A stretch of 48,436 bases of DNA from Nitrososphaeria archaeon. GTDB lineage: Archaea > Thermoproteota > Nitrososphaeria > Conexivisphaerales > UBA164. Positions 1,178 to 25,281 of this stretch are shown here, piece after piece (position 1 is the stretch's first letter; each line of letters opens with the position of its first letter). The notes under the pieces were generated by a model that saw only the letters and a list, made by a program, of their open reading frames with translations, did no database searches and was not told where the DNA came from. A program made the position numbers and the translations under genes. The stretch is taken from NCBI GenBank assembly GCA_049967195.1, contig JBMFTE010000003.1, positions 1-48,436 on the forward strand, written 5' to 3'.

Positions 1178-2470
1178 TCATTTTTCAGTATTGGAAATTG
1201 TTCCCACATTGGATTTGCTCCTCCCCTCCCTCTCGATCGCGTACAGGAATATGCCAAACATTATGGTCACCGACCCCACATAAAGGGCCTGAAGCCCAAG
1301 GGCGATCATTATTAACACTGATAGCAGAATTGAAACAACCTGGACATACGGGTAGAGGGGTGAGTTGAACGGTCCCCTTATTCCCCTTTTCCTCACTATA
1401 TATACCGCCAGGCCCGTTAGGGCGTAGGAGAATATTACACCAAAGTTAGAAGCCAGAGCTATGTACTGTATGTTCCCCAGGAAGATAGATGCCATTGCAA
1501 TGGCGCCAACAAGCAGCACTGCTCTTTTCGGAGAATCTTCCTTTCCGCCGAGAACCCTAGGAAGGAGGCCGTCCTCGCTCATCTGTAGCAGTGTCCTGGA
1601 GCCGGCCACTATCAGGGACAGCGTAACCGTAACGGTTGCGACAAGCGCCACTATGCCTATTATCTGGTCAACAAATAACGGTGCCCTGGAAAATGACAGC
1701 GCATTTAGGAGGGGGTCAGCCGTCACGGTGTACAGCTTCCAAGGCATCAGGGCTAGCATTCCGACCACTACAAGTATGTACAGGATCGTGCTGACAGCAA
1801 GCGAAAGCATTATCGCTCTTGGTGCATTCCTTTTACCGTCCCTGATTTCCGGTGTGAGAGTCGCTACAGTGTTAAATCCAGAGTATGCGAAAAACGCAAG
1901 GGAGGCAGATTCCACTATGCTGAACGGCCCGTTCGGGAAAAAAGGCGTGAACCTTGCAGGCACCCATCTGCCATAGATAACCGAGACGGCTATAAATATG
2001 ATCAGCCCTCCAGTCGTCAGGACCACAAGTAGCTCCTCCAGCTCTGCCACAACCCTTACACCAACGTAGTTAAGGGCCACGGCGAAGGCCATTAACACAA
2101 GCGCAAGCCCAAGCTCATACGTAAGTGACTGGAACCCGATGAGGGTCAGGAGGTATGATGAAAATCCAAGGGCCACGGCGGAAGTTGCTATAGCATACGA
2201 TATTGCCCTGAGCCATCCCACTATGAACCCCGTAGATTCCCCCATGGTTTCCTTTACAAAGGAGTACAACCCGCCGTGTGCCACTATTTTTGAAGAAAGC
2301 TCCGCGCTGTTCAGGGCGACTGTGATGGCAAGCACGGCTGTAAGAATAAAGGAAAACAGGGCGCCGGGCCCCGCCTGATAGATCACAGAACCGGCCAGCA
2401 CAAATATGCCGGCGCCTATTATGTTGCCTATGCCTATGGCTGTTGCCTGCCACATGCTGATTTTTTCCAA
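1178..2470 (-). CDS. APC-family amino acid permease
   Basis: GNIIGAGIF (TM1) and FFAYSGF (TM6) motifs; about 12 hydrophobic segments. Confidence 0.92.
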   Translation of the reverse strand: MEKISMWQATAIGIGNIIGAGIFVLAGSVIYQAGPGALFSFILTAVLAITVALNSAELSSKIVAHGGLYSFVKETMGESTGFIVGWLRAISYAIATSAVALGFSSYLLTLIGFQSLTYELGLALVLMAFAVALNYVGVRVVAELEELLVVLTTGGLIIFIAVSVIYGRWVPARFTPFFPNGPFSIVESASLAFFAYSGFNTVATLTPEIRDGKRNAPRAIMLSLAVSTILYILVVVGMLALMPWKLYTVTADPLLNALSFSRAPLFVDQIIGIVALVATVTVTLSLIVAGSRTLLQMSEDGLLPRVLGGKEDSPKRAVLLVGAIAMASIFLGNIQYIALASNFGVIFSYALTGLAVYIVRKRGIRGPFNSPLYPYVQVVSILLSVLIMIALGLQALYVGSVTIMFGIFLYAIEREGRSKSNVGTISNTEK

Positions 2471-4768: not shown

Positions 4769-5917
4769 ATGACGGTATATGTAGTTTCCGCAGTAAGGAC
4801 CCCCTTGGGGAAGCTCGGGGGTACTTTAAGGGGCCTGAGCGCTGTTGATATGGGATCCACGGTAATAGGCGAGGCAGTCAAAAGGTCAAAAATACCTGAG
4901 CGGGAAATAGGGATGGTAATAATGGGAAACGTGCTGAGGGCAGGCCATGGGCAGGATATTTCAAGGCAATGCGCAATTAGGGCAGGCCTGCCAAATGCTG
5001 TTGATGCGTACAGCATTGACATGGTGTGTGCCAGCGGAATGATGAGCATCATAAGTGCGGCCCAGATGATCATGACAGGGGATGCGCACGCTGTTGTGGC
5101 AGGAGGCACTGAAAGCATGAGCCAGGCTGAATTCACAGCTGCCCTTAGGGCTGGCGTGAGTACCGGTTCGGAAATCGCAATGAAGGATACAATGTTCGCC
5201 GACGGCCTGAGGGATCCATTCACCATGAAACTCATGGGGGAGGAGGCCGACATGGTAGCTAAGGAGCACGGGGCTCCCCGGGAGGAACTTGACCGCATTT
5301 CATATGAAAGCCATGTAAGGGCAGCAAGGGCTGCCGATTCAGGCAAATTCGATAAGGAGATCGTGCCGGTGCCGGGCCCAGTAACCAGGGACGAAGGGAT
5401 AAGGAGGGATACATCAATTGAAAAGCTGACAGGACTAAAGCCCGCTTTTGGAGGATTACACACTGCAGGTAGCTCCTCACAGATATCTGACGGCGCGGCA
5501 GCGCTTGTGCTTGCCGACGAAGCAACCGTCAAAGAGGCCGGCGTAAAGCCAATCGCAGTTATAAGGGGGTACAGCTGGGCTGGGGTTGAAAGTTACAGGT
5601 TCGCTGAGGCACCGGTGCCTGCCGTAAGGAAGCTGCTTGCCCGCATAGGTATGAAAATCAGCGAAATTGACTACTTTGAAAACAATGAAGCCTTTGCCGT
5701 AAGCAGTTACATATTTATGAAAGAGTTTGGAATCCCTGAGGAGAGGCTGAACCCCTGGGGCGGCGCGATTGCACTGGGGCACCCCATCGGAGCAAGCGGG
5801 GCAAGGATAGCCGTCACAATGCTAAACTATATGAAAGAATTGCGCGCAGGTACAGGCATTGCAAGCCTTTGCCACGGCATAGGGGGGGCAACCGCTGTGG
5901 CATTTGAGATGGTGTAG
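4769..5917 (+). CDS. Acetyl-CoA C-acetyltransferase (thiolase)
   Basis: VCASG (catalytic Cys), NEAF, GHPIGASG and LCHGIGG. Confidence 0.95.
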   Translation: MTVYVVSAVRTPLGKLGGTLRGLSAVDMGSTVIGEAVKRSKIPEREIGMVIMGNVLRAGHGQDISRQCAIRAGLPNAVDAYSIDMVCASGMMSIISAAQMIMTGDAHAVVAGGTESMSQAEFTAALRAGVSTGSEIAMKDTMFADGLRDPFTMKLMGEEADMVAKEHGAPREELDRISYESHVRAARAADSGKFDKEIVPVPGPVTRDEGIRRDTSIEKLTGLKPAFGGLHTAGSSSQISDGAAALVLADEATVKEAGVKPIAVIRGYSWAGVESYRFAEAPVPAVRKLLARIGMKISEIDYFENNEAFAVSSYIFMKEFGIPEERLNPWGGAIALGHPIGASGARIAVTMLNYMKELRAGTGIASLCHGIGGATAVAFEMV

Positions 5918-6012: not shown

Positions 6013-6612
6013 TTATATTTTTGTTATATTGAGTGGTTTTCTTGGCTTTAATTCTGGCATCTCGTCGGGCTTTCCAAGAGCCAGCATGCCTACATATTCC
6101 GTCCTGCCGGGCAGCCCAAGGGCAGCTTTTAGTTCCTCGTCGTGGAACTGAGGCACAGCAATGTACACTGTACCATAGCCCTTCGACCATGCAAGGAGCA
6201 TCATGTTTCCTAAAGCCAGAGCCACGCTTTCGATTCCCCACATCCTCTCATATTCCATGTACTCATCGTTAAGTGTCCTGGTGCTATAATCAAGGAGGCC
6301 GATTATGTACGCCGGCGCGTCGTAAATTCCCTTGGCAAACATTTCCTCCCATTTGCTGATCTCGTTTTTGTCGGGAGTTCTTCTCAATACTCTTGAAAGA
6401 TACGTCATCTGACCCTTTTTTATAAAGGAAAGTATTTTCTCCCTGTTTTCCCTGCTTGTAACTGATATGAAGCGCCACTGTTCGCCCCCGCCGGCTGTAG
6501 GCGCCCGTATGCCAGCTGATACGATTTCCCTTATATCTTCGTCCGGCACGGGGTCCTTCTTGAACCACCTGATGCTTCTCCTAGAAAAAATTATCTCGCT
6601 CAGGTCAGCCAT
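6013..6612 (-). CDS. Nitroreductase family protein
   Basis: RRSIRWF, APTAGGGEQWRF and NMMLLAWSKGYGT; likely start ATG 6612. Confidence 0.9.
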   Translation of the reverse strand: MADLSEIIFSRRSIRWFKKDPVPDEDIREIVSAGIRAPTAGGGEQWRFISVTSRENREKILSFIKKGQMTYLSRVLRRTPDKNEISKWEEMFAKGIYDAPAYIIGLLDYSTRTLNDEYMEYERMWGIESVALALGNMMLLAWSKGYGTVYIAVPQFHDEELKAALGLPGRTEYVGMLALGKPDEMPELKPRKPLNITKI

Positions 6613-6708
6613 AATGTTTCTGTGTACCAATTCACTTATAAAAATTATGCTTCAATAACAAACAAAAATTTAATATATTATAAAGTTACATTTAACTATT
6701 GACTAAAA

Positions 6709-7911
6709 TTGTTCCCATTTGGAGATATTAACGATTTTAAGATTGACATGGACCAAGAGCACGAACTGTTCAGGAAGTCAATAAGGCAGTTCTGCGAAGA
6801 GAAACTGACGCCGATAATTATGGAAGTTGAACGGACGAATGACATTCCACGGGGAGTGATTGAAGATGCAAAAAACCTCGGCCTTACAGGCATAGGCATA
6901 CCGCAGAAATATGGGGGGCAGGGGGGCGACATGAGGATGATGGTGATAATGTCCGAAGAGATTTCGAGGGTTCTCCCCTCGTTCGGCACAATGTTGCTGG
7001 TGAACCACCTTTTTGTGGACCCTCTAATTATTTTTGGCACCGAAGAACAGAAATCAAAGTACGTTGTGCCTGTGGCCACGGGGAAGGCGCTGGCAGCTCA
7101 TGCCAGCACTGAACCCGGAGCCGGAAGCGATGTGGCCGGCATAAGCACAGCCGCCAGAAAGGTTGAATCAGGGTGGGTGCTTAACGGCCGTAAGGCATTC
7201 ATAACAAACGCCGACAGGGCTGACTTTTTCATAGCCTCGGCTAGGACGTCTCCTGTAAATCCGCAGTCCCGGTGGAGGGGGCTTTCGACATTTATTGTGG
7301 AAAAAGGGTTCAGTGGGGTAGAAATAGGGCACAAGTTTGACGTGATTGGACTGAGGGGTGAACAGCCAAATGAAGTCATTTTCAACGATGCTGCCGTGCC
7401 GGAAGCCAACCTTGTGGGTAAGCCTGACGAGGGATTTAAGGTTGTAGTTACAACCTACGATTACTCCCGGATACTCATAGCAGCTCAGGCAGTAGGCATT
7501 GCACAGGCAGCTTTTGAAATGGCGTTCAATTACTCAACCCAGAGGAAGGCATTTGAAAAGCCACTGGCTTCTTTCGAAGGCATCGCTTTCAAGATATCTG
7601 ACATGCTGATGGAGCTCGAGGCCTCCAGGCTTTTGACTTACTGGGCAGCCTACCTCGCAGACTCCAAGAGGCCGGAGTTTTACATGGCATCGTCTATAGC
7701 CAAAACGTATTCCACAGAAACGGCCGAAAAGATGGCATCACTTGCAATAAAGATACACGGCGGTGCCGGCGTGGACCGCGAAACTGGCGTTGAAAGGCTT
7801 CTCAGGGATTCGGTGATAACCACGATATATGAAGGGGCTAATGACATACAGAGGCTGACCGTGTTCAGGAGCCTGCTCAAAATGGTTTCAAAGAACCTAG
7901 AGGTGTCCTAG
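6709..7911 (+). CDS. Acyl-CoA dehydrogenase (canonical homomeric type)
   Basis: All FAD and catalytic motifs are present: TEPGAGSD, LNGRKAFIT, RKAF, IHGGAG and IYEGA. Confidence 0.95.
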   Translation: MFPFGDINDFKIDMDQEHELFRKSIRQFCEEKLTPIIMEVERTNDIPRGVIEDAKNLGLTGIGIPQKYGGQGGDMRMMVIMSEEISRVLPSFGTMLLVNHLFVDPLIIFGTEEQKSKYVVPVATGKALAAHASTEPGAGSDVAGISTAARKVESGWVLNGRKAFITNADRADFFIASARTSPVNPQSRWRGLSTFIVEKGFSGVEIGHKFDVIGLRGEQPNEVIFNDAAVPEANLVGKPDEGFKVVVTTYDYSRILIAAQAVGIAQAAFEMAFNYSTQRKAFEKPLASFEGIAFKISDMLMELEASRLLTYWAAYLADSKRPEFYMASSIAKTYSTETAEKMASLAIKIHGGAGVDRETGVERLLRDSVITTIYEGANDIQRLTVFRSLLKMVSKNLEVS

Positions 7912-9063
7912 GTGAAGGCTGTGGTAATAGGGGCCGGCACCATGGGGCACGGGATAGCCCAGCTTGCGGCGGTGGCTGGCTATGACGTAACCCTAAACGA
8001 CGTTTCAGATGAGCTGTTGAACAGGGCTGTTGAAAAAATAAGGTGGAGCCTCAGTAAGATGAGCGAAAGCGGAAGGCTGAAGGAAAGCGTGGATTCTGTA
8101 ATGTCCAGGCTGAACACGGACAAGTCACTTGAAAATGCGCTGAAGGCCACTTCGGTGATGTTTGAAGCCGTGCCGGAAGTGCTTGACCTGAAGCTCAAAT
8201 TGTTCAGGATTGCAGGCACGGTTGCCCCGAATAACTCGATGCTCGCCACAAATACAAGCAGCATACCGGTATCTGAGATCGCGAAGGTAGTGCCAAATCC
8301 TGAACGGGTGATTGGAATGCACTTCTTTAACCCGCCCCAGCTCATGCCCCTTGTGGAGATTGTTAAGGGCCAGAAGACATCCGACAGCTGCGTTAAGGCT
8401 GCCACTGATATTTCAAAGCGGTTCGGAAAGGAACCCGTGCTGGTCAGCAGGGATGTACCCGGGTTTATCGTAAACAGGGTCCTTGCAAGGCTCCTGAATA
8501 CATCTTGCGCGATGGTGGCTCACGGGGCAGCCACGGTCGAATCGGTGGATTCAGCTCTAAAGTACAGGCTTGGTTTCCCGATGGGGGCCTTTGAGCTTGC
8601 TGACTACAGTGGCATTGACGTATTTTATCTCGTATTCCGGGCCATCAAAGAAAGGGGATTCAAAATGCATGAATGTCCCCTATTTGAGGAAAAGTACAGG
8701 AGGGGAGAACTCGGGTTCAAGACGGGTTCGGGTTTTTACCGATACCCCGAGGCCGGGAAATACCACCGGGCAAGCATTAGCCGCGAGGCCGGGGCCGGGG
8801 TTGACATAACCATGCTTGTCGCCCCTGCGGTCAATGAAGCTATCTGGCTGATCAGGGAGGGCGTATCTGTGCCCCAGGACATCGACAGGGCAACAAAGCT
8901 TGGTCTTGGATACCCTCAGGGAATCCTTGAAATAGGAAGCAAGATTGGAATGCAAAACGTGATGCGCGCACTCATCACCTTGCGCGAACTGACTTCATGG
9001 GACGAGTACGAGCCTGATACGCTGCTGCAGGAAATCGTGCTTAGCGGCACAAAGCTCATCTAA
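7912..9063 (+). CDS. 3-hydroxyacyl-CoA (3-hydroxybutyryl-CoA) dehydrogenase
   Basis: GAGTMG, TNTSS, GMHFFNP and PGFIVNR; duplicated C-terminal domain; starts directly after the ACAD stop. Confidence 0.93.
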   Translation: MKAVVIGAGTMGHGIAQLAAVAGYDVTLNDVSDELLNRAVEKIRWSLSKMSESGRLKESVDSVMSRLNTDKSLENALKATSVMFEAVPEVLDLKLKLFRIAGTVAPNNSMLATNTSSIPVSEIAKVVPNPERVIGMHFFNPPQLMPLVEIVKGQKTSDSCVKAATDISKRFGKEPVLVSRDVPGFIVNRVLARLLNTSCAMVAHGAATVESVDSALKYRLGFPMGAFELADYSGIDVFYLVFRAIKERGFKMHECPLFEEKYRRGELGFKTGSGFYRYPEAGKYHRASISREAGAGVDITMLVAPAVNEAIWLIREGVSVPQDIDRATKLGLGYPQGILEIGSKIGMQNVMRALITLRELTSWDEYEPDTLLQEIVLSGTKLI

Positions 9064-9620
9064 AATTCAATGCCCTTTCTTGCAGCCAGACCCGCCATAT
9101 ATGGGTGCTTTATTTCCCTCATCTCTGTCACAAGGTCCGCCGCATCAATCATCGCCTGAGTGGCATAACGACCGGTGATCACAAGCTCCACGCCACGCGG
9201 CCTTTCTTTCAGCAGTTTCAGCACTTCCTTTTCCCCTATGAGCCCCATGTGCACAGCAGTGGCAAGCTCGTCCAGCACCAGCACATCAAATTTGCCGGAA
9301 ACAAGGGCCCTGCCGGCCCACTTTAAGCCTTTCATGACCATTGCGACATAATCAGCCGGCGGCTTGCCTGGCTCATAAATCACCACCGAAGGTCCCGTGA
9401 TGTTTTTGTCTGTGGTTATAAAGTAGTTCATGCCATAGAACCGTTCAGTTATGTTGCTATGCCTTTTCAGTATTCTTGATTCGCCATAGCAGCCGACTTT
9501 CATAAAATGCACAAGCGCGACCTTAAGGCCCCAGCCTGCTGCCCTTACTGAAAGCCCAACAGCGGCGGTGGTCTTGCCCTTTCCATTTCCAGTGTAAATT
9601 TCCACCAGACCAAGTTCCAT
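9060..9620 (-). CDS. cobA: Cob(I)alamin adenosyltransferase, CobA/BtuR type
   Basis: YTGNGKGKTTAA P-loop, LVLDE, VITGR, and KHPY...KGIEF. Confidence 0.93.
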   Translation of the reverse strand: MELGLVEIYTGNGKGKTTAAVGLSVRAAGWGLKVALVHFMKVGCYGESRILKRHSNITERFYGMNYFITTDKNITGPSVVIYEPGKPPADYVAMVMKGLKWAGRALVSGKFDVLVLDELATAVHMGLIGEKEVLKLLKERPRGVELVITGRYATQAMIDAADLVTEMREIKHPYMAGLAARKGIEF

Positions 9621-11249
9621 CTAGAATATCACCGGTTCCCTGTATTCACCCCAAACTTCTTTCATCGCACCCACTATCTCACCCAGCGTGGCCCCTGCTC
9701 TGGCCGCGCCTATTATATATGGCATGAGGTTCTCCTCCTGTGCTGCCTTCTGGACATGTTGCAGCTCCTGCCTCACCTTCTGTTCGTCCCTGCCCATCCT
9801 GTATGCCCTTAGCCGGCTCATCTGCCTCCTTTCGTACCTTTCCGACACTTTAAGGACGGGGATTTCCGCCTCCCCACCCTGGGCGTGCGCGTTGACCCCG
9901 ACTATGATGCGTTTCTTTTCCTCAACCTCCTTCTGGTATCTGTATGAAGATTCAGCTATTTCCCTCTGGAAAAAGCCACTGTTTATCCCCTTGACAACTC
10001 CCCCCATGCCATTTATCCTGTCCAGGTAGTCATAGGCTTCCTCCTCCATTTTGTCGGTGAGCCACTCCAGATAATAGCTCCCGCCTGCGGGGTCAACAGT
10101 GTCAGGAAGGCCGGATTCCTCCGCTATTATCTGCTGCGTCCTGAGGGCTATGGTGGCCGCAAGCTCGGTCGGGAGGGCCCATGCCTCATCCAGGGCATTT
10201 GTGTGTAGGCTCTGGGTCCCACCGAGCACGGCTGCCATTGCTTCGATTGCTGTCCTCACGATGTTGTTTTCAGGCTGCTGCGCCGTCAGGCTCACCCCAG
10301 AAGTCTGTGTATGGAACCTCAACCACATCGACCTTTCCTTTTTCGGGTTGTACCTGCTCTTAATTTCCCTTGCCCAGATCCTCCTTGCGGCCCTGAACTT
10401 AGCTACCTCTTCGAAGAAGTAAATTGAGCTGTCAAAGAAGAAGCTCAGCCTGGGCGCAAAATCGTCTATGTCAAGCCCCCTCCTGACCGCCTCATCAGTG
10501 TACGTGAACCCGTCGGCGAGGGTGAAAGCAAGCTCCTGGACGGCAGTTGCGCCGGCTTCCCTTATATGATAGCCGCTTATGCTTATCGGGTTCCACTGTG
10601 GGAGTGCTTTTGAGCTGTACTCGATCGTGTCCACCACGAGCTTGAGCGATGGTTCCGGCGGAAATATGTACGATTTCTGTGCCATGTACTCCTTGAGTAT
10701 ATCGTTCTGGATGGTGCCCCGCAGATCAGCCGGTGGAACCCCCTGGTGCTCTGCCGCAAGAATATAAAATGCCCATATAACGGCCGCGGGCCCGTTGATC
10801 GTCATTGATGTTGAAACAGTTCCAAGCGGTATGTCCTGGAACATGAGCTCCATGTCCTCAAGGGTGCTTATACCAACCCCTGCCCTTCCAAACTCACCCC
10901 TTGAAAGCTCATCATCAGAATCCAGGCCAAGCAGAGTCGGGTAGTCGAAAGCTATGCTCAGCCCGGTTTCGCCCTGCTGTAGCAGGTACTTTAACCTCCT
11001 GTTGGTTTCAATTGCGTCCCCGTACCCTGAGAATTCTCTAATTGTCCATAACCTTTTCCGGTACATTTCCTCATGTATGCCCCTAGTGAACGGGTATCTG
11101 CCGGGGAATCCCAGCCTCTCCATGTAGCTTCCCTTTACGTCAAGAGGCGTGTAAAGAACCTTGACCGGGATGCCGGACCTTGTTGATCTTTCATTTTCGC
11201 CCCTCCTTCCCCTTTCCCAGGATTTCAGGGCTTTCCTGATACCGCTCAT
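9621..11249 (-). CDS. icmA: B12-dependent acyl-CoA mutase large subunit, isobutyryl-CoA mutase type
   Basis: Mutase barrel motifs YPFTRG, GTIQNDILKE, SISGYH and QSLHTN. The specificity positions are Phe73 and Gln191 (MCM has Tyr and Arg). Confidence 0.85.
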   Translation of the reverse strand: MSGIRKALKSWERGRRGENERSTRSGIPVKVLYTPLDVKGSYMERLGFPGRYPFTRGIHEEMYRKRLWTIREFSGYGDAIETNRRLKYLLQQGETGLSIAFDYPTLLGLDSDDELSRGEFGRAGVGISTLEDMELMFQDIPLGTVSTSMTINGPAAVIWAFYILAAEHQGVPPADLRGTIQNDILKEYMAQKSYIFPPEPSLKLVVDTIEYSSKALPQWNPISISGYHIREAGATAVQELAFTLADGFTYTDEAVRRGLDIDDFAPRLSFFFDSSIYFFEEVAKFRAARRIWAREIKSRYNPKKERSMWLRFHTQTSGVSLTAQQPENNIVRTAIEAMAAVLGGTQSLHTNALDEAWALPTELAATIALRTQQIIAEESGLPDTVDPAGGSYYLEWLTDKMEEEAYDYLDRINGMGGVVKGINSGFFQREIAESSYRYQKEVEEKKRIIVGVNAHAQGGEAEIPVLKVSERYERRQMSRLRAYRMGRDEQKVRQELQHVQKAAQEENLMPYIIGAARAGATLGEIVGAMKEVWGEYREPVIF

Positions 11250-12130
11250 TTGTCCAGCTCACCAGCAGCCTGGGAAATGATTTCCCCGATGCCCCTGCCT
11301 GACAGCAGCTCGTTTACCATCACGTCAAAGTCCCTGCTTGCAAGGTACCTGTCAAGCCTATATTCAAGACGATGACGCACAAGCTGCTTAAGCCTTGACC
11401 GGATCCTTTCCTGCCTGCTCCTGCCGTTCTTCTGCAGGTGCCTCTCGATTGCTGATGCCAGCGCGGCAATCCCCTCCCCCCTGGTGGCAACCGCCTTTAT
11501 GACCTCAGGCAGGCGGCCCGGCATTCCCAGCTCAAGTAGCTCCCTGGCCTTCTCATCGGCTGGGCCAGTGTCGGCCTTGTTTACGACAAAAATGTCCGCC
11601 ACCTCCATGATGCCCGCCTTGATCGCCTGTATTTCATCACCAAGATTCGGAACCGTGACCATAACCACTGTATCGGCTATGCTGTGTATGTCGGTTTCAT
11701 CCTGCCCTGCGCCAACGGTTTCTACAAATATTTTTTCATAGCCCGCTGCATCAAGGGCATTTATCAGGTCGATTGTAAAGTATCCCAGCCCCCCCTTTTT
11801 TCCACCAGTTGGCACGCTTCTTATAAATGCTCGGCCCTGTCTGCCAAGTTCAGGCATCCTTACCCTGTCCCCCAGAAGCGAGCCACCTGAAAGGGGGCTG
11901 GAAGGGTCAATGCACAGGACCCCGACCTTCTGGCCGGCCTTTATCATTTCCATTGCCAGCCCGGATATTACGGTTGATTTTCCGCTACCTGGAAAGCCAG
12001 TTATGCCGACAACAAACGAGCCGTGTATCATGCCAAGCAGGCTTTCACTTATTTTATCATTGCCAAGCTCGATTTCCGTCATTACCCTAGCAAGGGCTCT
12101 CCTGTCACCAGAAAGGGCGCGTTCTATCAT
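11246..12130 (-). CDS. meaB: MeaB/ArgK-family GTPase chaperone of the B12 mutase
   Basis: GFPGSGKS, DPSSPLSGGSLLGDRVRM, ETVGAGQ and NKAD; ATGA overlaps with both neighbours. Confidence 0.93.
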   Translation of the reverse strand: MIERALSGDRRALARVMTEIELGNDKISESLLGMIHGSFVVGITGFPGSGKSTVISGLAMEMIKAGQKVGVLCIDPSSPLSGGSLLGDRVRMPELGRQGRAFIRSVPTGGKKGGLGYFTIDLINALDAAGYEKIFVETVGAGQDETDIHSIADTVVMVTVPNLGDEIQAIKAGIMEVADIFVVNKADTGPADEKARELLELGMPGRLPEVIKAVATRGEGIAALASAIERHLQKNGRSRQERIRSRLKQLVRHRLEYRLDRYLASRDFDVMVNELLSGRGIGEIISQAAGELDK

Positions 12131-12534
12131 TTTAGCCTCCTGCACCTGCTCATTATAAAGCGGGATATTTCGTCAATGCTCGAGCCTGGTCCAAATACTG
12201 CGCTAACGCCGATCTTCACAAGCCTTGGCTTGTCTGATTCAGGTATTATGCCGCCCCCTATCAGCAGCACATCGTCAATTTTGTTCTGCTTCATCAGACG
12301 AGCTACCCTCCTGAACTGGTACATGTGGGCCCCGGACAGTACGCTCAATCCGATCACGTCCGCGTCCTCTTCTATTGCGGCCCTGACGATGTCCTCAGGT
12401 GTCTGCCTGATCCCGGTGTATATGACGTCAAATCCCCTTTCCATCAAGGACCTGGCGAGCACTTTTGCCCCACGGTCATGCCCGTCCAGACCCGGCTTGG
12501 CGATTATGACCCTGATCCTCCTTTCGCCACTCAT
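12127..12534 (-). CDS. icmB: Cobalamin-binding small subunit of the acyl-CoA mutase
   Basis: DGHDRG base-off/His-on motif, GLSVLSG and GGGIIP. Confidence 0.9.
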   Translation of the reverse strand: MSGERRIRVIIAKPGLDGHDRGAKVLARSLMERGFDVIYTGIRQTPEDIVRAAIEEDADVIGLSVLSGAHMYQFRRVARLMKQNKIDDVLLIGGGIIPESDKPRLVKIGVSAVFGPGSSIDEISRFIMSRCRRLK

Positions 12535-12652
12535 AATATTGATATTTTCCAGAAGAGTTTAATAAATATTTAATTGTTGCATGAAATTTTATGAAAATTA
12601 ATTGCAGCTTAAGCGATTAACATCTAAATTATTATATGGGTTATTGCAGATA

Positions 12653-14704
12653 ATGCCCATGGATGACATGCTAAAGCGCCTTTATGAGCCTTCGACAATT
12701 GCAGTTGTTGGTCCTTCACCAAATAGCAACAATTTGGCAACGGTTATCCTGAGCAACCTGCTTTCAGCAAGCAGGGAAGGCAGGCTCAGCGCAGGCATTT
12801 ACGCCGTAAACCCGCTCTATGAGGAATGCCTTGGCCTGAAATGCAAAAAAGGACTGGAAGAGGGCACGGACTTGGCAATAATTGCCGTCCCCACAAGGCT
12901 TGCCGAAGATTACCTGCTGCAGGCCCAGAATGCTAGCACCAGTGTCGCGATCGTCATATCAGGCGGTTTCAGCGAAAGCGGAGGTAAATCTCTCAGGAAT
13001 GTTGTGCACGGAACGAGGGTGCTTGGTCCGAACACGATAGGCGTTGTAGACCCTTACAGCGGCATAAACACGCTGTTCCTCCCGAATTACAAGGCAGCCT
13101 CTGACGGCGCCAGCCTTAGGTCAATACCGGACCCTGTGAAAGGACGCGTCGCAATAATTGCCCAGAGCGGGGGGATCAGTATTTCACTCTATGACGAACT
13201 GCTGAGTTCAGGAATCGGCATCAGGTCACTTACATGCCTCGGAAATTCCGACGACATAGATGCCGCAGAAATCGTGGAATATTTTTCTGAAGACGGCCTG
13301 ACGGACCTGATCGCCCTCTACCTGGAGGGGGTTCAGGATGGGAGGAAACTCATGGACGCAATATCAAGGGCCGCAGTTAAAAAGAAGGTAGTTGCCATAA
13401 TCGCAGGCTTAAGCGAAGCCGGGAAAAGGGCCACGTCTTCCCATACCGCTTCAATCGTCAGCAACTCAGATGTTTACCTCGCAGCGATAAAGCAGGCCGG
13501 GGCGCTTCCAGTAAGGGATTTTAGAGATTTCATTGCGCTTATTAAGGCGTACCAGATGATCGGTACAGTAAAAGGAAGGGGGGTTGCCGTGCTGACAAAC
13601 AGCGGAGGTGCTGGCGTGCTTGGCGCTGATGAGGCGTCGCTCAGCGGAATGGATGTACCCCCCCTGCACGACAGGCTTGCCGGGTTAAGGGAAAAGGGGG
13701 TGCTGCCGGGAATAGCAAGCGTAGAAAACCCGGTAGATGTAAGCGCATCCGGCGACGACAGGAGCATTGAAGCCGTCTATGAAAGCCTTATGAAATTTGA
13801 CGACATAAACTCCGTCGTGCTGGTGAGCACCCACTACCCTCCAGGCATAACCGACATGCTGCCTTCCAAGATAGCCGGCATTTACCGCAAATCCGGAAAA
13901 CCTACCGTGGCCGTGGAGCTCGGGAGGTCCCCGTGGTCTAACCGCATCAGGGAAATCTACGATGCGAATGGCATACCTTCCGTGGATTCGCCCCAGCAGG
14001 CTGCGCGCATTCTTGCGTTACTTTGCAGGCTAAACGAAATTGAGCCTGCATGGAATCCTGAAATGGGGCACAGCGGAACTACTCTTGCAGCTGGGGTGCA
14101 CATGGAGCCCGAGCTTACGGACATCGTTGGTGCATTCGGCTTTAAAACCCCTCAGTGGACATGGGTGGAAAGCGAGGACGGCCTGCTCAAAGTCAGGTAC
14201 CCTGCTGCCCTGAAGGTTTTTTCAGGCAACCTGATGCACAAAACTGAAGCGGGGGCTGTAAGGGTAAACGTGCGCAGGGAGGATGCTATGACAACATTCA
14301 AGGAACTCCACAGAGCTTTCCCAGATGGAAGGGTTTATGCGCAGGAAATGGTCAGTGGCGTTGAGATCAGGGTTGGTGTAGCCAGCGACAGTGCCTTTGG
14401 GAAGTATATTGACATTGGGGCAGGTGGAGTCCTGACGGAGCTTTTGAGGGACCACAGCACAAGGATAGCCCCGGTTACTCCAAGCGAGGCTTCGAAGATG
14501 CTTGAGGAACTAAAAATGGCTCCTCTCCTTAGGGGGTACAGGGGAGGGGTGGCCGCGGACCTGGCATCGCTTGCAGATTCAATTTCGTCTCTTTCAGCGT
14601 GGGCAGCATCACTTAAAGGGCTCAGGGAAATGGAGATCAACCCGCTGATCGTAAACAGGACCGGCTCCTACGCCGTTGATGTACGTGCAACAGTCGAACC
14701 ATGA
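12653..14704 (+). CDS. ADP-forming acyl-CoA synthetase, fused alpha-beta
   Basis: GPNTIG, QSGG, SHT (phospho-His), NSGG, NPVD, and ATP-grasp motifs HKTEAG and EINPL. Confidence 0.9.
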   Translation: MPMDDMLKRLYEPSTIAVVGPSPNSNNLATVILSNLLSASREGRLSAGIYAVNPLYEECLGLKCKKGLEEGTDLAIIAVPTRLAEDYLLQAQNASTSVAIVISGGFSESGGKSLRNVVHGTRVLGPNTIGVVDPYSGINTLFLPNYKAASDGASLRSIPDPVKGRVAIIAQSGGISISLYDELLSSGIGIRSLTCLGNSDDIDAAEIVEYFSEDGLTDLIALYLEGVQDGRKLMDAISRAAVKKKVVAIIAGLSEAGKRATSSHTASIVSNSDVYLAAIKQAGALPVRDFRDFIALIKAYQMIGTVKGRGVAVLTNSGGAGVLGADEASLSGMDVPPLHDRLAGLREKGVLPGIASVENPVDVSASGDDRSIEAVYESLMKFDDINSVVLVSTHYPPGITDMLPSKIAGIYRKSGKPTVAVELGRSPWSNRIREIYDANGIPSVDSPQQAARILALLCRLNEIEPAWNPEMGHSGTTLAAGVHMEPELTDIVGAFGFKTPQWTWVESEDGLLKVRYPAALKVFSGNLMHKTEAGAVRVNVRREDAMTTFKELHRAFPDGRVYAQEMVSGVEIRVGVASDSAFGKYIDIGAGGVLTELLRDHSTRIAPVTPSEASKMLEELKMAPLLRGYRGGVAADLASLADSISSLSAWAASLKGLREMEINPLIVNRTGSYAVDVRATVEP

Positions 14705-14909: not shown

Positions 14910-15173
14910 ATGTATCGCCCAGTTTTAAGGCAAAAGTGGAACGTGATCATCGACGCCGACAGATGCAAGGGATGCGAAATATGCGTGAACGCCTGCCCTG
15001 AACAGAACCTTCAGCTTTCAAAGAGTATCAACGGCCTGGGCTACCATTATGTCGAATTTAGCTTTCACGGCAAAAGGGGCGACTGCACTGGCTGCAATAT
15101 ATGTTACAAAGTGTGCCCGGATTATTCAATCCTCGGGGTGGTTTCAGGTGAAGAGGCTGCTAATGGGAGCTGA
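14910..15173 (+). CDS. 2x[4Fe-4S] ferredoxin, delta subunit of 2-oxoacid:ferredoxin oxidoreductase
   Basis: CKGCEICVNACP and CTGCNICYKVCP; first gene of the oxidoreductase operon. Confidence 0.9.
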   Translation: MYRPVLRQKWNVIIDADRCKGCEICVNACPEQNLQLSKSINGLGYHYVEFSFHGKRGDCTGCNICYKVCPDYSILGVVSGEEAANGS

Positions 15174-16185
15174 AGCGATAGCAGAAGCGGCAGTTGACGC
15201 CGGTCTTGAAGCTTATTTTGGATATCCGATAACCCCCAGCAGCGAAATTATGGAGAACCTTGCGCTTCTACATGCCAGCCACAGAAGCGATAAATTCAAG
15301 GTTTATTTCCAGTCGGCAAGCGAGGTTGAATCGATTAACCTGCTAATGGGCGCCGGTGCTGCAGGCCATATTGCCATGACAGCGACTTCAGGCCCGGGAT
15401 TAAGCCTTATGGCGGAGGGCATTTCGTATGCCTACACTTCGGAAATCCCCCTGGTAATAGTTAATGTTAACCGGGGCGGCCCCGGGCTTGGAAATGTGGC
15501 ACCGGAGCAGAGCGATTACCTCTTTGTGACTAAATCCCTAGGACATGGCGGCAGCAAGGCCATAGTGCTTGCGCCCAGCTCAATTCAGGAGGCCATGAAC
15601 CAGGTCCAGATGGCCTTTGAGCTAAGTTTCAAGTTCAGGATGCCCGTGATAATTTTAACCGATGCGATAATAATACACATGCTGGAGAGCGTTGATCAGG
15701 ACCATCTGCTTCCCGTAAGCGTGGACTCAGGCTGGAGTGCGAGGGGGAGGAACGGCGGGGAGAGGCACCTGATAAACAGCATTTACCTTGAACCGGCCGA
15801 ATTCAGGGAAATAAAGGTTAAGCTGGAGGAAAAGTGGAAGACCGTTGAACCCTTGGGCGAGTGTTTTATGTGCGAGGACGCGGAAACCCTGTTTGTGGCA
15901 TACGGTATAAGTGCCAGAATAGCAATGGAAGCAGCAGCAGAACTGAGGGATAGGGGGATAAGGGCTGGCGTTTTCAGGCCAATAACGCTAAATCCATTTC
16001 CAGGGAAGATGCTCATGAATGCAGCCAGAAACAGCGACAGGATAATCGCCATTGAGATGAATGAGGGGCAGATGGTGCATGATGTGCAGTACTGGATTAG
16101 AAGGGATGTGGAGCTTGTCCCGTTCATGGGTGGAATTTATCCTGACACCGAGGAGGTGATAGAAAAGTGCAAGCAAAGCAGCTGA
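15148..16185 (+). CDS. 2-oxoacid:ferredoxin oxidoreductase alpha subunit (VorB-like, 2-ketoisovalerate type)
   Basis: GYPITPSSE, TATSGPG, RGGPGLGN..PEQSDY, GHG and EMNEGQM; probable GTG start 15148. Confidence 0.88.
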   Translation: MKRLLMGAEAIAEAAVDAGLEAYFGYPITPSSEIMENLALLHASHRSDKFKVYFQSASEVESINLLMGAGAAGHIAMTATSGPGLSLMAEGISYAYTSEIPLVIVNVNRGGPGLGNVAPEQSDYLFVTKSLGHGGSKAIVLAPSSIQEAMNQVQMAFELSFKFRMPVIILTDAIIIHMLESVDQDHLLPVSVDSGWSARGRNGGERHLINSIYLEPAEFREIKVKLEEKWKTVEPLGECFMCEDAETLFVAYGISARIAMEAAAELRDRGIRAGVFRPITLNPFPGKMLMNAARNSDRIIAIEMNEGQMVHDVQYWIRRDVELVPFMGGIYPDTEEVIEKCKQSS

Positions 16186-16955
16186 GCGCTGTTTTCCCTG
16201 GGGCTGTAAATTCATATTGCCCTGGCTGCGAGCACGGCCTTTTGTTAAAGTTCATTGCCATGGCGCTAGAGGAGCTTGGAATAACTGAAAAGGCGGTAAT
16301 GGTTGGATCTGTTGGATGCTCTACCCTCGCATTTAAGTTTCTCAACGTTGATTATGTACAGGCGCCACACGGAAGGGCACCGGCCATAATGACCGGGATA
16401 AAGGAGGTGGAGCCCGGCGCAATAGTGTTTGCAGTTCAGGGAGACGGAGATGCCCTTTCAATAGGGCTTCAAGAGCTTATCCACGCCGCCAACAGGGGAA
16501 TCCCGGTTACAGTTTTTATGTACAACAACATGGTTTTCGGAATGACCGGGGGGCAGATGGCTCCAACCACTCCCGAGGGAATGGTCACAACTACCACCCC
16601 CTTCGGCAGGAACACTAAAACGAGCGGGCCACCGATTAACTCCTGCGAACTGCTTTCCTGCCTTTCCGGGCCATCATATATCAGGAGGGTTATCATAGCT
16701 CCGAAACCCGTCCAGCTGAAGGACAGGGTGATGTACTCCTCCAAGGAAGCCAATGAATCCTACAGGGCTATAGTTTCAGCGCTCAGGACCCAGATGATGG
16801 GAGGGTTTTCATATGTTGAATTTCTCGGAACATGTAACGTAAACTGGAAGATGAGTATAATCGATTCAAAAAAATATGCGCATGAGGTCAGCGCCAAAGT
16901 TTACCCGCCGCGGCTGTTCAGGGACAGGTTTGGAGTTGATTCAGTTGAAGGCTAG
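16167..16955 (+). CDS. 2-oxoacid:ferredoxin oxidoreductase beta (TPP-binding) subunit
   Basis: CPGCEHG, VGCS, HGRAPA and GDGD...NN..FGMTGGQ. Confidence 0.92.
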   Translation: MQAKQLSAVFPGAVNSYCPGCEHGLLLKFIAMALEELGITEKAVMVGSVGCSTLAFKFLNVDYVQAPHGRAPAIMTGIKEVEPGAIVFAVQGDGDALSIGLQELIHAANRGIPVTVFMYNNMVFGMTGGQMAPTTPEGMVTTTTPFGRNTKTSGPPINSCELLSCLSGPSYIRRVIIAPKPVQLKDRVMYSSKEANESYRAIVSALRTQMMGGFSYVEFLGTCNVNWKMSIIDSKKYAHEVSAKVYPPRLFRDRFGVDSVEG

Positions 16956-17526
16956 GATTATCATATCCGGAAGGGGAGGGCTTGGCGTGGTTGAAATGGG
17001 TAACATGCTTGCCTACCTATTTATGATTAGGGGGTTTTCCACAACCGTTGTTCCAACGTATGGTCCCCAGACGCGGGGGGGTTTTGTTGAAAGTGTCGTG
17101 GTAATACAGGACAAGCGCGTATTAAACCCTATCCCTACAAAGTTCGACGTGCTGATAGCCATGGACGTACCGGCACTTAACAGGATTAAGGACCTAATGC
17201 CTTACGGTACAATATTCTTCAATTCTTCCTTGGTCAACGGGGAGTGGCCCAACGCGGTATATATACCTGCAACTGAGATAGCAGAAAAGGTAGCCGGGAA
17301 TAAAATCAGGGAACCGCGCGTAACCTCAAACGCATCCATGCTTGGTGCCCTTTCAAAAATAATGCAGCTGAGTAAAGGCGACCTCAATGAAGCAATTTCA
17401 AACATATTAAGCGACAAGCCGAAACAGGCTATACAGCTCAACATAGACATAGCTGATGCAGGATACAACTATGCCGAAAGCGAATTGGAAAAAATAAAAA
17501 ATCCCCTGCCATTTTTAATCAAATAA
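16945..17526 (+). CDS. 2-oxoacid:ferredoxin oxidoreductase gamma subunit
   Basis: GRGGLG, YGPQTRGG and NASMLGA; TTG start downstream of GGAG (start uncertain). Confidence 0.88.
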   Translation: MKARIIISGRGGLGVVEMGNMLAYLFMIRGFSTTVVPTYGPQTRGGFVESVVVIQDKRVLNPIPTKFDVLIAMDVPALNRIKDLMPYGTIFFNSSLVNGEWPNAVYIPATEIAEKVAGNKIREPRVTSNASMLGALSKIMQLSKGDLNEAISNILSDKPKQAIQLNIDIADAGYNYAESELEKIKNPLPFLIK

Positions 17527-19536: not shown

Positions 19537-19944
19537 ATGGAAGTTGGCGTGCTAAAGGAAATTATTGAAAATGACCCCTTCCTGAAGCTGCTAGGCATCA
19601 GGGTAGAAAAAATACAGGCTGGGTCATGCAAGCTTGTACTGAACTACAGGAGTGACCTCACAAGGTTTGGCAACATCCTGAACGGTGGTGTCACGGCAAC
19701 CCTAGCTGATGCGGCAGGCGGGTGCGCCGCCCTATCATATAACCTTAGCAAAAACGAAGTTACCGTTGACCTGGACGTTTCATATTTGAGGCCAATCTCT
19801 GAAGGCCCTGTTGTGGCAGAATCATCAATTGTAAAAAGCGGGGAAAGCCTTACGTTCACGATCACAAACATATATGACGGGAAGGGAAACCTGTGCGCCG
19901 TGGCAAAGGGAACGTACTTTTATCTTGATGAATTCAATATTTAG
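19537..19944 (+). CDS. PaaI-family hotdog thioesterase
   Basis: PFLKLLGI, NGGVTATLAD and VTVDLDVSYLRP. Confidence 0.88.
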   Translation: MEVGVLKEIIENDPFLKLLGIRVEKIQAGSCKLVLNYRSDLTRFGNILNGGVTATLADAAGGCAALSYNLSKNEVTVDLDVSYLRPISEGPVVAESSIVKSGESLTFTITNIYDGKGNLCAVAKGTYFYLDEFNI

Positions 19945-23295: not shown

Positions 23296-25281
23296 TCACT
23301 TCCCCCTGTACACAGGCTTCCTCTTTGAAAGAAGGCTTGAAACCCCCTCTTTCAGGTCTTCTGTCCCGTACAGCACGCCCATGGCAGTTGATTCCAGGTC
23401 GAGCCCCACGTCCTCTGGAACCTCTGCGGCCTTGTTGATGAGCTTCTTTGCCAGGGCTGCTGCTATAGGGGCTGAAGACGACGCTATCCCCTGGGCATAT
23501 TTAAGAGCTTCTGCATCAACATCGCCATCGAACAGTTTTGCCACCAATCCCATGTCATATGCGTCCTTTCCGGTGATCCTTTCACCGGTTAATATCATGT
23601 GTAAGGCTCTTGACGCCCCAGCCAGCCTGGTCAGCCTCTGTGTGCCGCCCCAGCCGGGAACTAGCCCCAGCGTCACCTCAGGGAATCCCATTATAGAACT
23701 GCTGGTTGAAACCCTGATGTCGCATGCGAGCGCCAGCTCAAACCCGCCGCCAAGCACGTAACCCTTCAGTGATGCTATTACAACTTTAGGGATCTCGGTC
23801 AGCTTGCGGAAAACTCGCTCCCCCCTTCTTGAGAACTCCATAAATGAAGCCGCATCAGCAAAGTATGCGCTGAGGTCTGCCCCGGCAGAAAAATTCGCCC
23901 CTCCCCCGGTGATAATGACCACAAAGGTTTCCCGGTCGTTCCATATTTCGTCTATTGCCCTGTCAAGCTCATTTATCACATCAACGCTCAGCAGATTGAG
24001 CTTTGGCCTGTTAATGCTGATTCTGGCAATCCTGTCCGCAACTTTCTCCACACTTATCACCTTGTATCCAGCCGGCTGTTGCGCTGGTTGCTGTGTCGCA
24101 GCTGCTGCTTCTTCCGCTGGTCTGAGCTTGCCTTCGATGGCATCCCTGAGCCTGCCATCCCTGATGCTGGCAGCCGGCTCAAAGACGCTGCACTGGAATT
24201 CCTTTGAGAGCTGCTCAAGCTTTTCCTTTGCCTCAGAACTTGTCATACTCTGCGCCACGGAAACTGGACCAAACGGCCTGTTGAGCCCAAGCTTGACTGC
24301 TGTCTCAATATCATCCGGAGAAGCCACGCCGAGTTCTATCAGCTTTACAGCTTCGTTTACTTCAAGCATAAGCACGTCAAGGAGAGTTACCTTGTCCGTG
24401 GGGCTGGCTGAACCAATAACCGCCTTCCCAGAACTCCACTGGTAGAACCCCCTGCCCGTCTTTCTGCCGAGCAGGCCCTTTTCAACCATCTGCTTTATCG
24501 TGCTGCACTTTGCATAATCTTCAGAGATTTCCTTGGCATAGTAAACCATTGAATCGTACACCACGTCAATCCCCACAAAATCCATCAGCTCATACGGCCC
24601 CATTGGTAATCCCTGGGATTTGGCAAACAGGTCAACCTCTTCCGGCTTGGCAATGCCCTTGTCAAGGATCAGGCAGAAGTACAGCATTTCAGGAGCCGAA
24701 ATCCGGTTTACGATGAAGCCTGCCACATCCTTTCTTACCTTGACGGGCACCTTGCCCAGCCCTTTTATAACTTCATATACGACATTTACAACGTCTTCGC
24801 TTGTGCTGTCGCCCCTGATCACCTCAACCAGCTTCATGATAACCGGGGGGTTAAAGAAGTGCACCCCAAGGAACCTAGACGGATTGGATACACTCTTTGA
24901 AAGTTCGGTTATCCTGATGTTGGATGTATTTGAACCTATTATGGCATCGGACCGGGCATATGAACTTATCTCACGAAACACAGTATCCTTTATTTCCTGC
25001 TTTTCAGGAACAGCTTCAATGATCAGGTCGGCGTCGCTTACACCTTCACTTATCTTTGTAAACGTCCTTATCCCTGCTACTATGCCCTGTGCGCTATCTT
25101 CGGTCATCGTCCCCCTCTTGACGAACCTTTCAAGGCTTTCCCTTATTTCCTGTATGGCCTTTTGGAGGGCGTCCTGGCTTACATCGATCAGGTTCACGGA
25201 AAAGCCCCTCATGGCAAAGAGCTCAGCTATCCCGTGACCCATTTCGCCCGCCCCTATTATCGCAACCCTATTAATTTCCAA
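23296..25281 (-). CDS. Fused 3-hydroxyacyl-CoA dehydrogenase / enoyl-CoA hydratase
   Basis: N-terminal GAGEMG and HFFNP; Ala/Gln/Pro linker; C-terminal FSAGAD, GGGFELAL and FPEV.LG..PGWGG. Confidence 0.95.
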   Translation of the reverse strand: MEINRVAIIGAGEMGHGIAELFAMRGFSVNLIDVSQDALQKAIQEIRESLERFVKRGTMTEDSAQGIVAGIRTFTKISEGVSDADLIIEAVPEKQEIKDTVFREISSYARSDAIIGSNTSNIRITELSKSVSNPSRFLGVHFFNPPVIMKLVEVIRGDSTSEDVVNVVYEVIKGLGKVPVKVRKDVAGFIVNRISAPEMLYFCLILDKGIAKPEEVDLFAKSQGLPMGPYELMDFVGIDVVYDSMVYYAKEISEDYAKCSTIKQMVEKGLLGRKTGRGFYQWSSGKAVIGSASPTDKVTLLDVLMLEVNEAVKLIELGVASPDDIETAVKLGLNRPFGPVSVAQSMTSSEAKEKLEQLSKEFQCSVFEPAASIRDGRLRDAIEGKLRPAEEAAAATQQPAQQPAGYKVISVEKVADRIARISINRPKLNLLSVDVINELDRAIDEIWNDRETFVVIITGGGANFSAGADLSAYFADAASFMEFSRRGERVFRKLTEIPKVVIASLKGYVLGGGFELALACDIRVSTSSSIMGFPEVTLGLVPGWGGTQRLTRLAGASRALHMILTGERITGKDAYDMGLVAKLFDGDVDAEALKYAQGIASSSAPIAAALAKKLINKAAEVPEDVGLDLESTAMGVLYGTEDLKEGVSSLLSKRKPVYRGK

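Follow-up and report, generated by a model that had tools for sequence, protein, structure and literature searches.

We analysed a 48,436-nucleotide stretch of DNA, here called the window, that forms positions 1 to 48,436 of contig JBMFTE010000003.1 (assembly GCA_049967195.1) of a Nitrososphaeria archaeon in the order Conexivisphaerales, and found that one of its open reading frames (ORFs) encodes an acyl-coenzyme A (CoA) mutase with the signature residues of an isobutyryl-CoA mutase (ICM) in place of those of a methylmalonyl-CoA mutase (MCM). This ORF is likely to specify the large subunit of a split, adenosylcobalamin (AdoCbl)-dependent, ICM-type mutase that would link isobutyryl-CoA, made by a 2-oxoisovalerate oxidoreductase (VOR)-like enzyme, to butyryl-CoA and beta-oxidation. 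Phylogeny, gene context across 90 other loci and the failure to detect an epimerase or a carboxyltransferase genome-wide all agree with a putative ICM. A first-pass annotation of the DNA had proposed the same enzyme, and the residues, the tree, the context and the two undetected partners support it, with substrate specificity as a prediction from sequence. The residues, clade, operon and neighbours are reported as observed, and from them we infer the substrate, the direction of flux and the physiological role. The ORF and the codons discussed below are as follows.

9621..11249, minus strand: acyl-CoA mutase large (substrate-binding) subunit, ICM type, protein P0001 (single open frame, 542 amino acids)
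11034-11036, minus strand: Glu72 codon, GAA (from the ORF translation)
11031-11033, minus strand: Phe73 codon, TTC, aligned with MCM Tyr89 and HcmA Ile
10950..10952, minus strand: Ala100 codon, aligned with the Asp of HcmA and HCM-like mutases (position computed from the ORF start)
10677-10679, minus strand: Gln191 codon, CAG, aligned with MCM Arg207

P0001 carries the residues of an isobutyryl-CoA mutase

P0001 belongs to the AdoCbl-dependent acyl-CoA mutase superfamily, as a large subunit: it scored 771.9 bits against TIGR00641, the model of the N-terminal substrate barrel of these mutases (cut-off 303.8). Against the MCM equivalog NF006944, which models fused MCM and partly penalizes a split protein by design, it scored 637.3 bits, under the cut-off of 876; against the IcmF equivalog NF045497 (cut-off 1500) it reached 349 bits, and three separate ORFs gave 349, 102 and 62 bits. 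In a phmmer search of PDB sequences, the top match of P0001 was HcmA, the large subunit of a 2-hydroxyisobutyryl-CoA mutase (HCM; 4r3u, E 4e-160, 537 bits), followed by human MMUT (E 7e-144, 484 bits), M. tuberculosis MCM (468 bits) and P. shermanii MutB (439-440 bits); IcmF was far behind HcmA (E 1e-83, 285 bits over two stretches).

In MCM, Tyr89 and Arg207 bind the substrate carboxylate, and ICMs have Phe and Gln at these positions, which in Streptomyces IcmA are Phe80 and Gln198. In the translation of P0001, the motif WTIREFSG begins at residue 68 and ILKEYMAQKSY at residue 184, placing Phe73 and Gln191 118 residues apart, in exact agreement with the residues, codons and spacing first annotated. 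HMMER alignments against PDB chains held each of the two residues inside an ungapped block. Phe73 stood opposite Tyr in human MMUT and M. tuberculosis MCM (rqYag) and opposite Ile in HcmA (rqIag), Gln191 opposite Arg in the MCMs (fmvRnty) and Gln in HcmA, and Ala100 opposite Asp in HcmA (siAfd versus stDfd); we take the HCM signature to be numbered Ile90 and Asp117 in HcmA. On the P. shermanii chain 5req_A (727 amino acids), Phe73 and Gln191 correspond to SEQRES indices 88 and 206, which become residues 89 and 207 on the assumption that the initiator Met is missing from the chain; 5req_A itself has Phe at residue 89, and we take 5REQ to be the Y89F mutant of the P. shermanii mutase. Since both residues align without gaps with the MCM Tyr and Arg, the proposed equivalence to Tyr89 and Arg207 holds.

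Inspection of 28 positions revealed that the family-invariant residues were identical in all classes and kept in P0001 (T69, R71, S98, S148, T150, T179, Q181, Y227, H228, S269, F271, H313, Q315 and Q346), and that class differences were limited to positions 73, 191 and 192, plus 100 for the HCM-like sequences. Position 73 was Phe in 76/76 sequences of the Phe/Gln class and Tyr in 13/13 of the Tyr/Arg class, and Asp at position 100 was confined to two HCM-like references, L084 and L092. Because Phe and Gln replace the carboxylate-holding Tyr and Arg while the family-wide residues are kept, the pocket would be expected to take an uncharged branched acyl group.

Glu72 is present as first annotated, yet its description as an additional unusual change did not survive comparison, for Glu also occupied this position in 47 of the 120 best matches in a 5.8-billion-protein collection, which we used as the homologue set (Gln in 59, Met in 14). 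Because position 72 varies (Q/M/E/L) in the Tyr/Arg class as it does in the Phe/Gln class, the alignments point to Glu72 as a clade-typical variant, with no extra change of specificity.

The mutase genes form a four-gene operon

The large-subunit gene lies third in a group of four genes on the minus strand, ordered small subunit, MeaB, large subunit and adenosyltransferase. Its three partners are listed here.

12127..12534, minus strand: B12-binding small subunit (IcmB-like), first operon gene (TIGR00640 acid_CoA_mut_C, 159.2 bits, cut-off 57.45)
11246..12145, minus strand: MeaB-type G-protein chaperone (TIGR00750 MeaB, 265.1 bits, cut-off 240.75)
9060..9620, minus strand: CobA/CobO-type ATP:cob(I)alamin adenosyltransferase, last operon gene (NF004637, 161.1 bits, cut-off 185; TIGR00708 cobA, 144.6 bits, cut-off 167.75; both below cut-off)

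An internal MeaB ATG (12130-12128) overlaps the TGA of the small-subunit gene as ATGA, the large-subunit ATG overlaps the TGA of the MeaB gene in the same way, and the TAG of the large-subunit gene is followed directly by the ATG of the adenosyltransferase gene. Judged from this arrangement, the four genes form a translationally coupled operon. The small subunit best matched the PDB entry 2yxb, 'coenzyme B12-dependent mutase' (E 9e-37), and then the small subunit of HcmA (4r3u_C, E 2e-31), and the printed alignment showed that the DxHxxG stretch (ldgHdrg) is kept. A separate large subunit and B12 subunit, with MeaB encoded between them, in an archaeal lineage bear out the proposal of a stand-alone two-subunit archaeal enzyme. 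In the proposed mechanism, the split mutase would interconvert isobutyryl-CoA and n-butyryl-CoA, the CobA-type adenosyltransferase would load AdoCbl, and MeaB would act as the G-protein chaperone.

Relatives of P0001 share the signature and form a clade

All 120 best homologues had Phe, Ala and Gln at the columns of residues 73, 100 and 191, so the signature is not a sequencing accident. The nearest named relatives were from Conexivisphaerales, Nitrososphaeria and 'Thaumarchaeota' (80-89% identity), Thermoplasmata and Aciduliprofundum relatives were about 70-74% identical, and Baldrarchaeia and bacterial WOR-3 were also represented. Every source-given name in this set was either 'methylmalonyl-CoA mutase (family protein / N-terminal domain)' or 'acyl-CoA mutase large subunit family protein', and "isobutyryl" appeared in none; the expectation that automated pipelines would apply an MCM label was thus borne out by MCM or generic acyl-CoA mutase names throughout. 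A species-level scan with one genome per GTDB species gave at least 600 matches. Among the best 80 loci, which we inspected, 72 had Phe/Ala/Gln and 8 had Tyr/Ala/Arg; they came from archaea (Thermoplasmatota, Aenigmatarchaeota, Bathyarchaeia and Asgard lineages) and from bacteria (Chloroflexota, Actinomycetota, Bacteroidota, Acidobacteriota, Gemmatimonadota, Nitrospirota and others). On these comparisons, P0001 falls in a very large Phe/Gln clade that spans many archaeal and bacterial phyla, and the enzyme does not appear to be rare.

Trees, the check that the first-pass annotation had proposed, placed P0001 with the Phe/Gln sequences and apart from all Tyr/Arg sequences; they were quick searches with support from the Shimodaira-Hasegawa-like approximate likelihood-ratio test (SH-aLRT) only. 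In a 103-row tree (LG+G4), a branch with 99% SH-aLRT support split 13 Tyr/Arg rows, including E. coli ScpA and mutases beside mce or carboxylase genes, from 88 Phe/Gln and 2 HCM-like rows. A site-heterogeneous 61-row tree (LG+C20 PMSF), which takes in 17 sequences from the window organism's own class, again placed 37 Phe/Gln and 2 HCM-like rows behind a 99% branch. In both trees P0001 sat in a seven-row clade with 100% support, composed of its own family and Thermoplasmatota sequences, and the HCM-like pair was nested among the Phe/Gln rows as its own 100%-supported pair, apart from the clade of P0001.

These trees bear on whether P0001 could be a 2-hydroxyisobutyryl-CoA/3-hydroxybutyryl-CoA mutase of the HCM/RCM type, for which the HcmA top match and a 3-hydroxybutyryl-CoA dehydrogenase gene adjoining the operon would speak. 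Such an enzyme is highly improbable. Its Phe73 and Ala100 stand at the Ile and Asp of HcmA, and Ala100, which also takes the place of the Asp of both HCM-like references, argues against an HCM; the references (Ile or Val plus Asp, one being that of Mycobacterium ELW1) pair apart from P0001, and the operon contains no acyl-CoA ligase. A lactyl-CoA mutase was also considered and rejected, this activity being described, in the part of PMC11599936 available to us, as an engineered side activity of HCM with no natural family.

Within the 61-row tree, P0001 clustered at 100% with Thermoplasmatota and Aciduliprofundum sequences (L003, P0012, L117, L129 and L120 were compared), and the Phe/Gln mutases of other families in the window's order formed a separate 100% clade. 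Because the clade unites the window's family with Thermoplasmatota and the operon order is common to both, transfer of the cassette between these two archaeal phyla is suggested.

Genome content and gene context separate the Phe/Gln from the Tyr/Arg mutases

The source genome (1.19 Mb, 132 contigs, 89% complete) has only one mutase large subunit. The partners of an MCM pathway were sought there as methylmalonyl-CoA epimerase (TIGR03081) and as the carboxyltransferase of propionyl-CoA carboxylase or methylmalonyl-CoA decarboxylase (PF01039), and each model gave 0 matches in the 89% of the genome represented; the operon likewise contains no epimerase gene, as had been noted from the sequence.

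Across the class, a mutase homologue was found in 92/121 genomes. All nine loci of the window's family had Glu-Phe/Ala/Gln, ten loci of family f5 had Met-Phe/Ala/Gln, and Tyr/Ala/Arg occurred in seven sampled genomes of family f7, with a mutase match in 55/55 of its genomes, and in one genome each of f11 and f12. We take f7, f11 and f12 to be ammonia oxidisers, in which Tyr/Ala/Arg would fit the MCM of their carbon-fixation cycle. The signature thus separated the sampled genomes cleanly, into ammonia-oxidiser-type genomes with Tyr/Arg only, genomes of the window's family with Phe/Gln only, and five same-order genomes with two paralogues, one of each type; this coexistence of paralogues with distinct signatures argues for distinct functions.

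A true MCM that tolerates Phe and Gln would account for the database names and for the 637 bits on NF006944, but it is scarcely credible: that score is under the model's cut-off, both carboxylate-binding residues are replaced, 13/13 Tyr/Arg sequences lie across a 99% branch, epimerase and carboxyltransferase were not found in the genome, and same-order genomes retain a separate Tyr/Arg paralogue beside the Phe/Gln one.

One further paralogue in a same-class genome, L132 (G058:C1:28750-30650), had Met-Val/Ala/Gly with the Arg207 region rewritten, a signature outside the MCM, ICM and HCM patterns. Its genome has five mutase matches, and in the 61-row tree it paired weakly (90%) with the long-branched paralogue L138.

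Gene context was surveyed by tblastn with the window proteins and two Ilyobacter proteins, within at most 10 kb, at the 90 other loci. An acyl-CoA dehydrogenase (ACAD) was nearby at 19/76 Phe/Gln loci, a 3-hydroxybutyryl-CoA dehydrogenase at 10/76 and a thiolase at 15/76, as against 0/13 Tyr/Arg loci in each case; the epimerase was nearby at 3/76 Phe/Gln and 8/13 Tyr/Arg loci, and the carboxyltransferase at 10/76 and 7/13, respectively. Because the flanks were of unequal length and the relatives are not independent, these counts describe a tendency and do not amount to a test. The order of the window recurs in a Thermoplasmatota locus at 72% identity, with ACAD, small subunit, MeaB, large subunit, adenosyltransferase and VOR-like pair. 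Reference loci had the following residues at positions 73, 100 and 191.

E. coli ScpA, beside argK, scpB and scpC: Tyr/Ala/Arg
Ilyobacter polytropus split mutase, in a cluster of CoA-transferase, mutase, MeaB, mce and decarboxylase: Tyr/Ala/Arg
Brevibacillus mutase, beside mce and carboxyltransferase: Tyr/Ala/Arg
Mycobacterium sp. ELW1 plasmid mutase: Ile/Asp/Gln
Sinorhizobium medicae gene, not annotated: Val/Asp/Gln
Deinococcus plasmid gene, beside MeaB: Phe/Ala/Gln
Haloterrigena plasmid gene, beside a B12 subunit, MeaB and an ACAD: Phe/Ala/Gln

The ELW1 mutase has been assigned to 2-hydroxyisobutyryl-CoA conversion (PMC13188929, in the excerpt available). Streptomyces plasmids L085 and L086 carried split large/small mutase gene pairs with Tyr/Ala/Arg, with no MeaB, epimerase or carboxylase gene within 4 kb; one of the pairs adjoins metH, metF and ahcY.

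Neighbouring genes suggest a route from valine to acetate

The genes that would surround the mutase in a degradation pathway lie on both sides of the operon.

1178..2470, minus strand: amino-acid permease, BcaP-like (TIGR00909, 244 bits; NF053761 BcaP, 221 bits; both below cut-off)
4769..5917, plus strand: acetyl-CoA C-acetyltransferase (thiolase; TIGR01930, 415.2 bits, cut-off 240.55)
6709..7911, plus strand: short-chain-type ACAD (many ACAD models, E 1e-99 to 1e-60, none above equivalog cut-off)
7912..9063, plus strand: 3-hydroxybutyryl/3-hydroxyacyl-CoA dehydrogenase (NF004474, 292 bits; NF006124, 304 bits; below cut-offs)
12602..14704, plus strand: ADP-forming acyl-CoA synthetase, fused alpha/beta, divergent from the mutase operon (NF045494, 330 bits; TIGR02717, 272 bits)
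14910..17526, plus strand: four-subunit 2-oxoacid:ferredoxin oxidoreductase, VOR-like (family models)
14910-15173, plus strand: delta subunit of the VOR-like enzyme
15049-16185, plus strand: alpha subunit of the VOR-like enzyme
16167-16955, plus strand: beta subunit of the VOR-like enzyme
16876-17526, plus strand: gamma subunit of the VOR-like enzyme
23296..25281, minus strand: fused 3-hydroxyacyl-CoA dehydrogenase/enoyl-CoA hydratase (Pfam 3HCDH_N, 3HCDH, ECH_1)
25752-26483, plus strand: electron-transfer flavoprotein (ETF) beta (Pfam ETF families)
26480-27451, minus strand: ETF alpha (Pfam ETF, ETF_alpha)
27405-29246, minus strand: CCG/4Fe-4S oxidoreductase (Pfam CCG, Fer4)

The alpha subunit of the oxidoreductase best matched NF005507, '3-methyl-2-oxobutanoate dehydrogenase subunit VorB' (379.2 bits, cut-off 399), and the beta, gamma and delta subunits matched their family models. 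The synthetase is assigned at family level only, with both models below cut-off. The 3-hydroxybutyryl-CoA dehydrogenase gene is convergent with the adenosyltransferase gene, and the crotonase step is supplied by the ECH_1 domain of the dehydrogenase fusion (residues 417-660, 170 bits). Electrons from the acyl-CoA dehydrogenases are likely to leave through ETF beta and alpha with the CCG/4Fe-4S oxidoreductase. The remainder of the window includes two further ACADs, a second thiolase, SCP2, an ETF-quinone oxidoreductase (QO)-like flavoprotein and an acyl-CoA ligase, with two ETF pairs in all; elsewhere in the source genome, IlvC (above cut-off) and a class-IV aminotransferase are present.

These neighbours allow us to propose a role for the mutase in valine degradation. 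Valine would be transaminated, the adjacent VOR-like oxidoreductase would yield isobutyryl-CoA, and the mutase would straighten this to butyryl-CoA, which the acyl-CoA dehydrogenase with ETF, the crotonase and 3-hydroxyacyl-CoA dehydrogenase, and the thiolase would convert into two acetyl-CoA; the ADP-forming synthetase would then provide ATP in the last step. Because the gene families of the window cover each of them, all steps from 2-oxoisovalerate to acetate are predicted to be encoded within 48 kb. The opposite use of the mutase and VOR, in valine synthesis from butyryl-CoA, is one that nothing calls for, and because the IlvC gene scored above cut-off the ordinary biosynthetic route is probably present.

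The same neighbours leave room for a broader mutase of neutral branched-chain acyl-CoAs, with isovaleryl-CoA or pivalyl-CoA, or 2-methylbutyryl-CoA from the oxidoreductase next door, as its main or extra substrates. Enzymes of the VOR type generally use each of the three branched 2-oxoacids, and the subclade of the window has changes near the substrate strand (His59, Glu61, Glu72, Ser74 and Tyr76), of which residues 61, 72, 74 and 76 differ from the commonest in the Phe/Gln class. IcmF, which has the same signature, also turns over pivalyl-CoA and isovaleryl-CoA (PMC10481361, as far as available). We nonetheless regard this breadth as unlikely: positions 59, 61, 72, 74 and 76 vary inside both classes, formation of pivalyl-CoA brings no known catabolic gain, and the short-chain ACAD, 3-hydroxybutyryl-CoA dehydrogenase and acetoacetyl-CoA thiolase best suit a straight C4 chain. 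No paper on a 'pivalyl-CoA mutase' was found in the literature searched.

Several points weigh against the assignment of P0001 as an ICM in a valine route. IcmF, the sole solved ICM, matches P0001 less well (285 bits) than do HcmA (537 bits) and the MCMs (440-484 bits), and neither tree includes a characterised stand-alone IcmA, those of Streptomyces cinnamonensis and Syntrophothermus lipocalidus being absent. The Phe/Gln signature fixes no single substrate, because IcmF carries it and converts pivalyl-CoA and isovaleryl-CoA too. An epimerase lies beside 3/76 and a carboxyltransferase beside 10/76 Phe/Gln loci, and because the source genome is incomplete its two absences are read as 'not found' only. 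The VorB match is slightly under cut-off. In the literature searched we found no assay of an archaeal ICM or of any enzyme of the clade.

Other features were recorded in the window. The alpha ORF of the VOR-like enzyme overlaps the delta ORF by 125 bases, and the true alpha start is probably further downstream because the family matches begin near residue 35. A second beta-oxidation block (19934-29246 and 36009-39437) comprises two ACADs, a thiolase, the dehydrogenase-crotonase fusion and SCP2, together with two separate ETF alpha/beta pairs, the CCG/4Fe-4S oxidoreductase and the ETF-QO-like flavoprotein, an arrangement unusually rich, for a genome of 1.2 Mb, in outlets for the electrons of acyl-CoA oxidation. 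At 31012-33594, an aldehyde dehydrogenase (403 bits) is back to back with a proline dehydrogenase, which looks like a proline-to-glutamate module and is consistent with an amino-acid-degrading lifestyle. Near the operon, a nitroreductase-fold protein (6013-6630) best matched BluB, the 5,6-dimethylbenzimidazole synthase, at 77.6 bits (cut-off 150), a match too weak for a BluB call.

Comparison with known systems

The closest likeness by gene content is to stand-alone bacterial ICMs. S. cinnamonensis IcmA/IcmB and the S. lipocalidus ICM (Slip_0757-0760) have split large and small subunits as here, and S. cinnamonensis IcmA has the same Phe and Gln for the MCM Tyr and Arg. As described in the available part of PMC5017805, the S. 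lipocalidus cluster comprises two mutase subunits, a MeaB-like protein and a cob(I)alamin adenosyltransferase, the four-gene content of the operon reported here. Unlike either, the present operon is in an archaeal host, is surrounded by genes for a VOR-like oxidoreductase, an ADP-forming synthetase and beta-oxidation, and encodes the subclade variants Glu72, Ser74 and Tyr76. IcmF of Cupriavidus metallidurans (PDB 4xc6) is assigned the same reaction, and its modules (B12 domain, G-protein and substrate domain) follow the order of three genes here; however, IcmF is one chain of 1113 residues and a distant match (285 bits), whereas here the genes are separate.

Of the solved structures, HcmA/HcmB of Aquincola tertiaricarbonis (4r3u) is nearest to the large subunit and, after 2yxb, second nearest to the small subunit. 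It shares the split architecture with MeaB and the Gln at the Arg207 position, but HcmA has Ile and Asp where P0001 has Phe73 and Ala100. MCMs (P. shermanii MutB, human MMUT, E. coli ScpA and the split MCM of ammonia-oxidising Nitrososphaeria) have the same fold and radical machinery, are about 47-55% identical to P0001 and conserve all shared pocket and CoA-binding residues. They differ by Tyr in place of Phe and Arg in place of Gln, by a separate clade and by different neighbour genes.

Implications

That bacterial ICM genes cluster with MeaB and adenosyltransferase genes is already known; the Phe/Gln clade is widespread in archaea and bacteria. The annotation 'isobutyryl-CoA mutase subunit B' has been published for the archaeon Cuniculiplasma (PMC7285479, in the portion available), and the mislabelling of ICM as MCM is a recognized problem (PMC7764203, citing Cracan 2010, in its available text). 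In the limited literature searched, we found neither a characterisation of an archaeal ICM nor a report of ICM in Conexivisphaerales. The main value of the present work is thus a correction of annotation, for a gene that is labelled, with its named relatives, MCM or generic acyl-CoA mutase. The correction may matter beyond this genome. In a comparative study of Nitrososphaeria, 'mut, methylmalonyl-CoA mutase' is plotted to mark the hydroxypropionate/hydroxybutyrate cycle, with gains and losses that extend to Conexivisphaerales (PMC10833072, in the parts available); if 'mut' was called there by homology, Phe/Gln genes such as this one would enter the MCM tally and obscure the history of this carbon-fixation cycle.

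A more speculative proposal, which we consider quite unlikely, is that the Glu-Phe subclade of the Conexivisphaerales family and Thermoplasmatota is a broadened branched-chain mutase that acts on isobutyryl-CoA plus further VOR products, for example 2-methylbutyryl-CoA or isovaleryl-CoA, and that its cassette moved between the phyla by gene transfer. If so, thermoacidophilic archaeal peptide degraders would route branched-chain amino-acid carbon to acetyl-CoA via ordinary beta-oxidation, with additional ATP from the ADP-forming synthetase, in place of excretion of branched acids or the propionyl-CoA/MCM route. Because no archaeal ICM appears to be characterised in the literature searched, this operon from a thermophile lineage would be a reasonable first target. 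The role in valine degradation would follow from the neighbouring genes, and the window offers a compact hypothesis for an archaeal valine-to-acetyl-CoA route without a propionyl-CoA branch.

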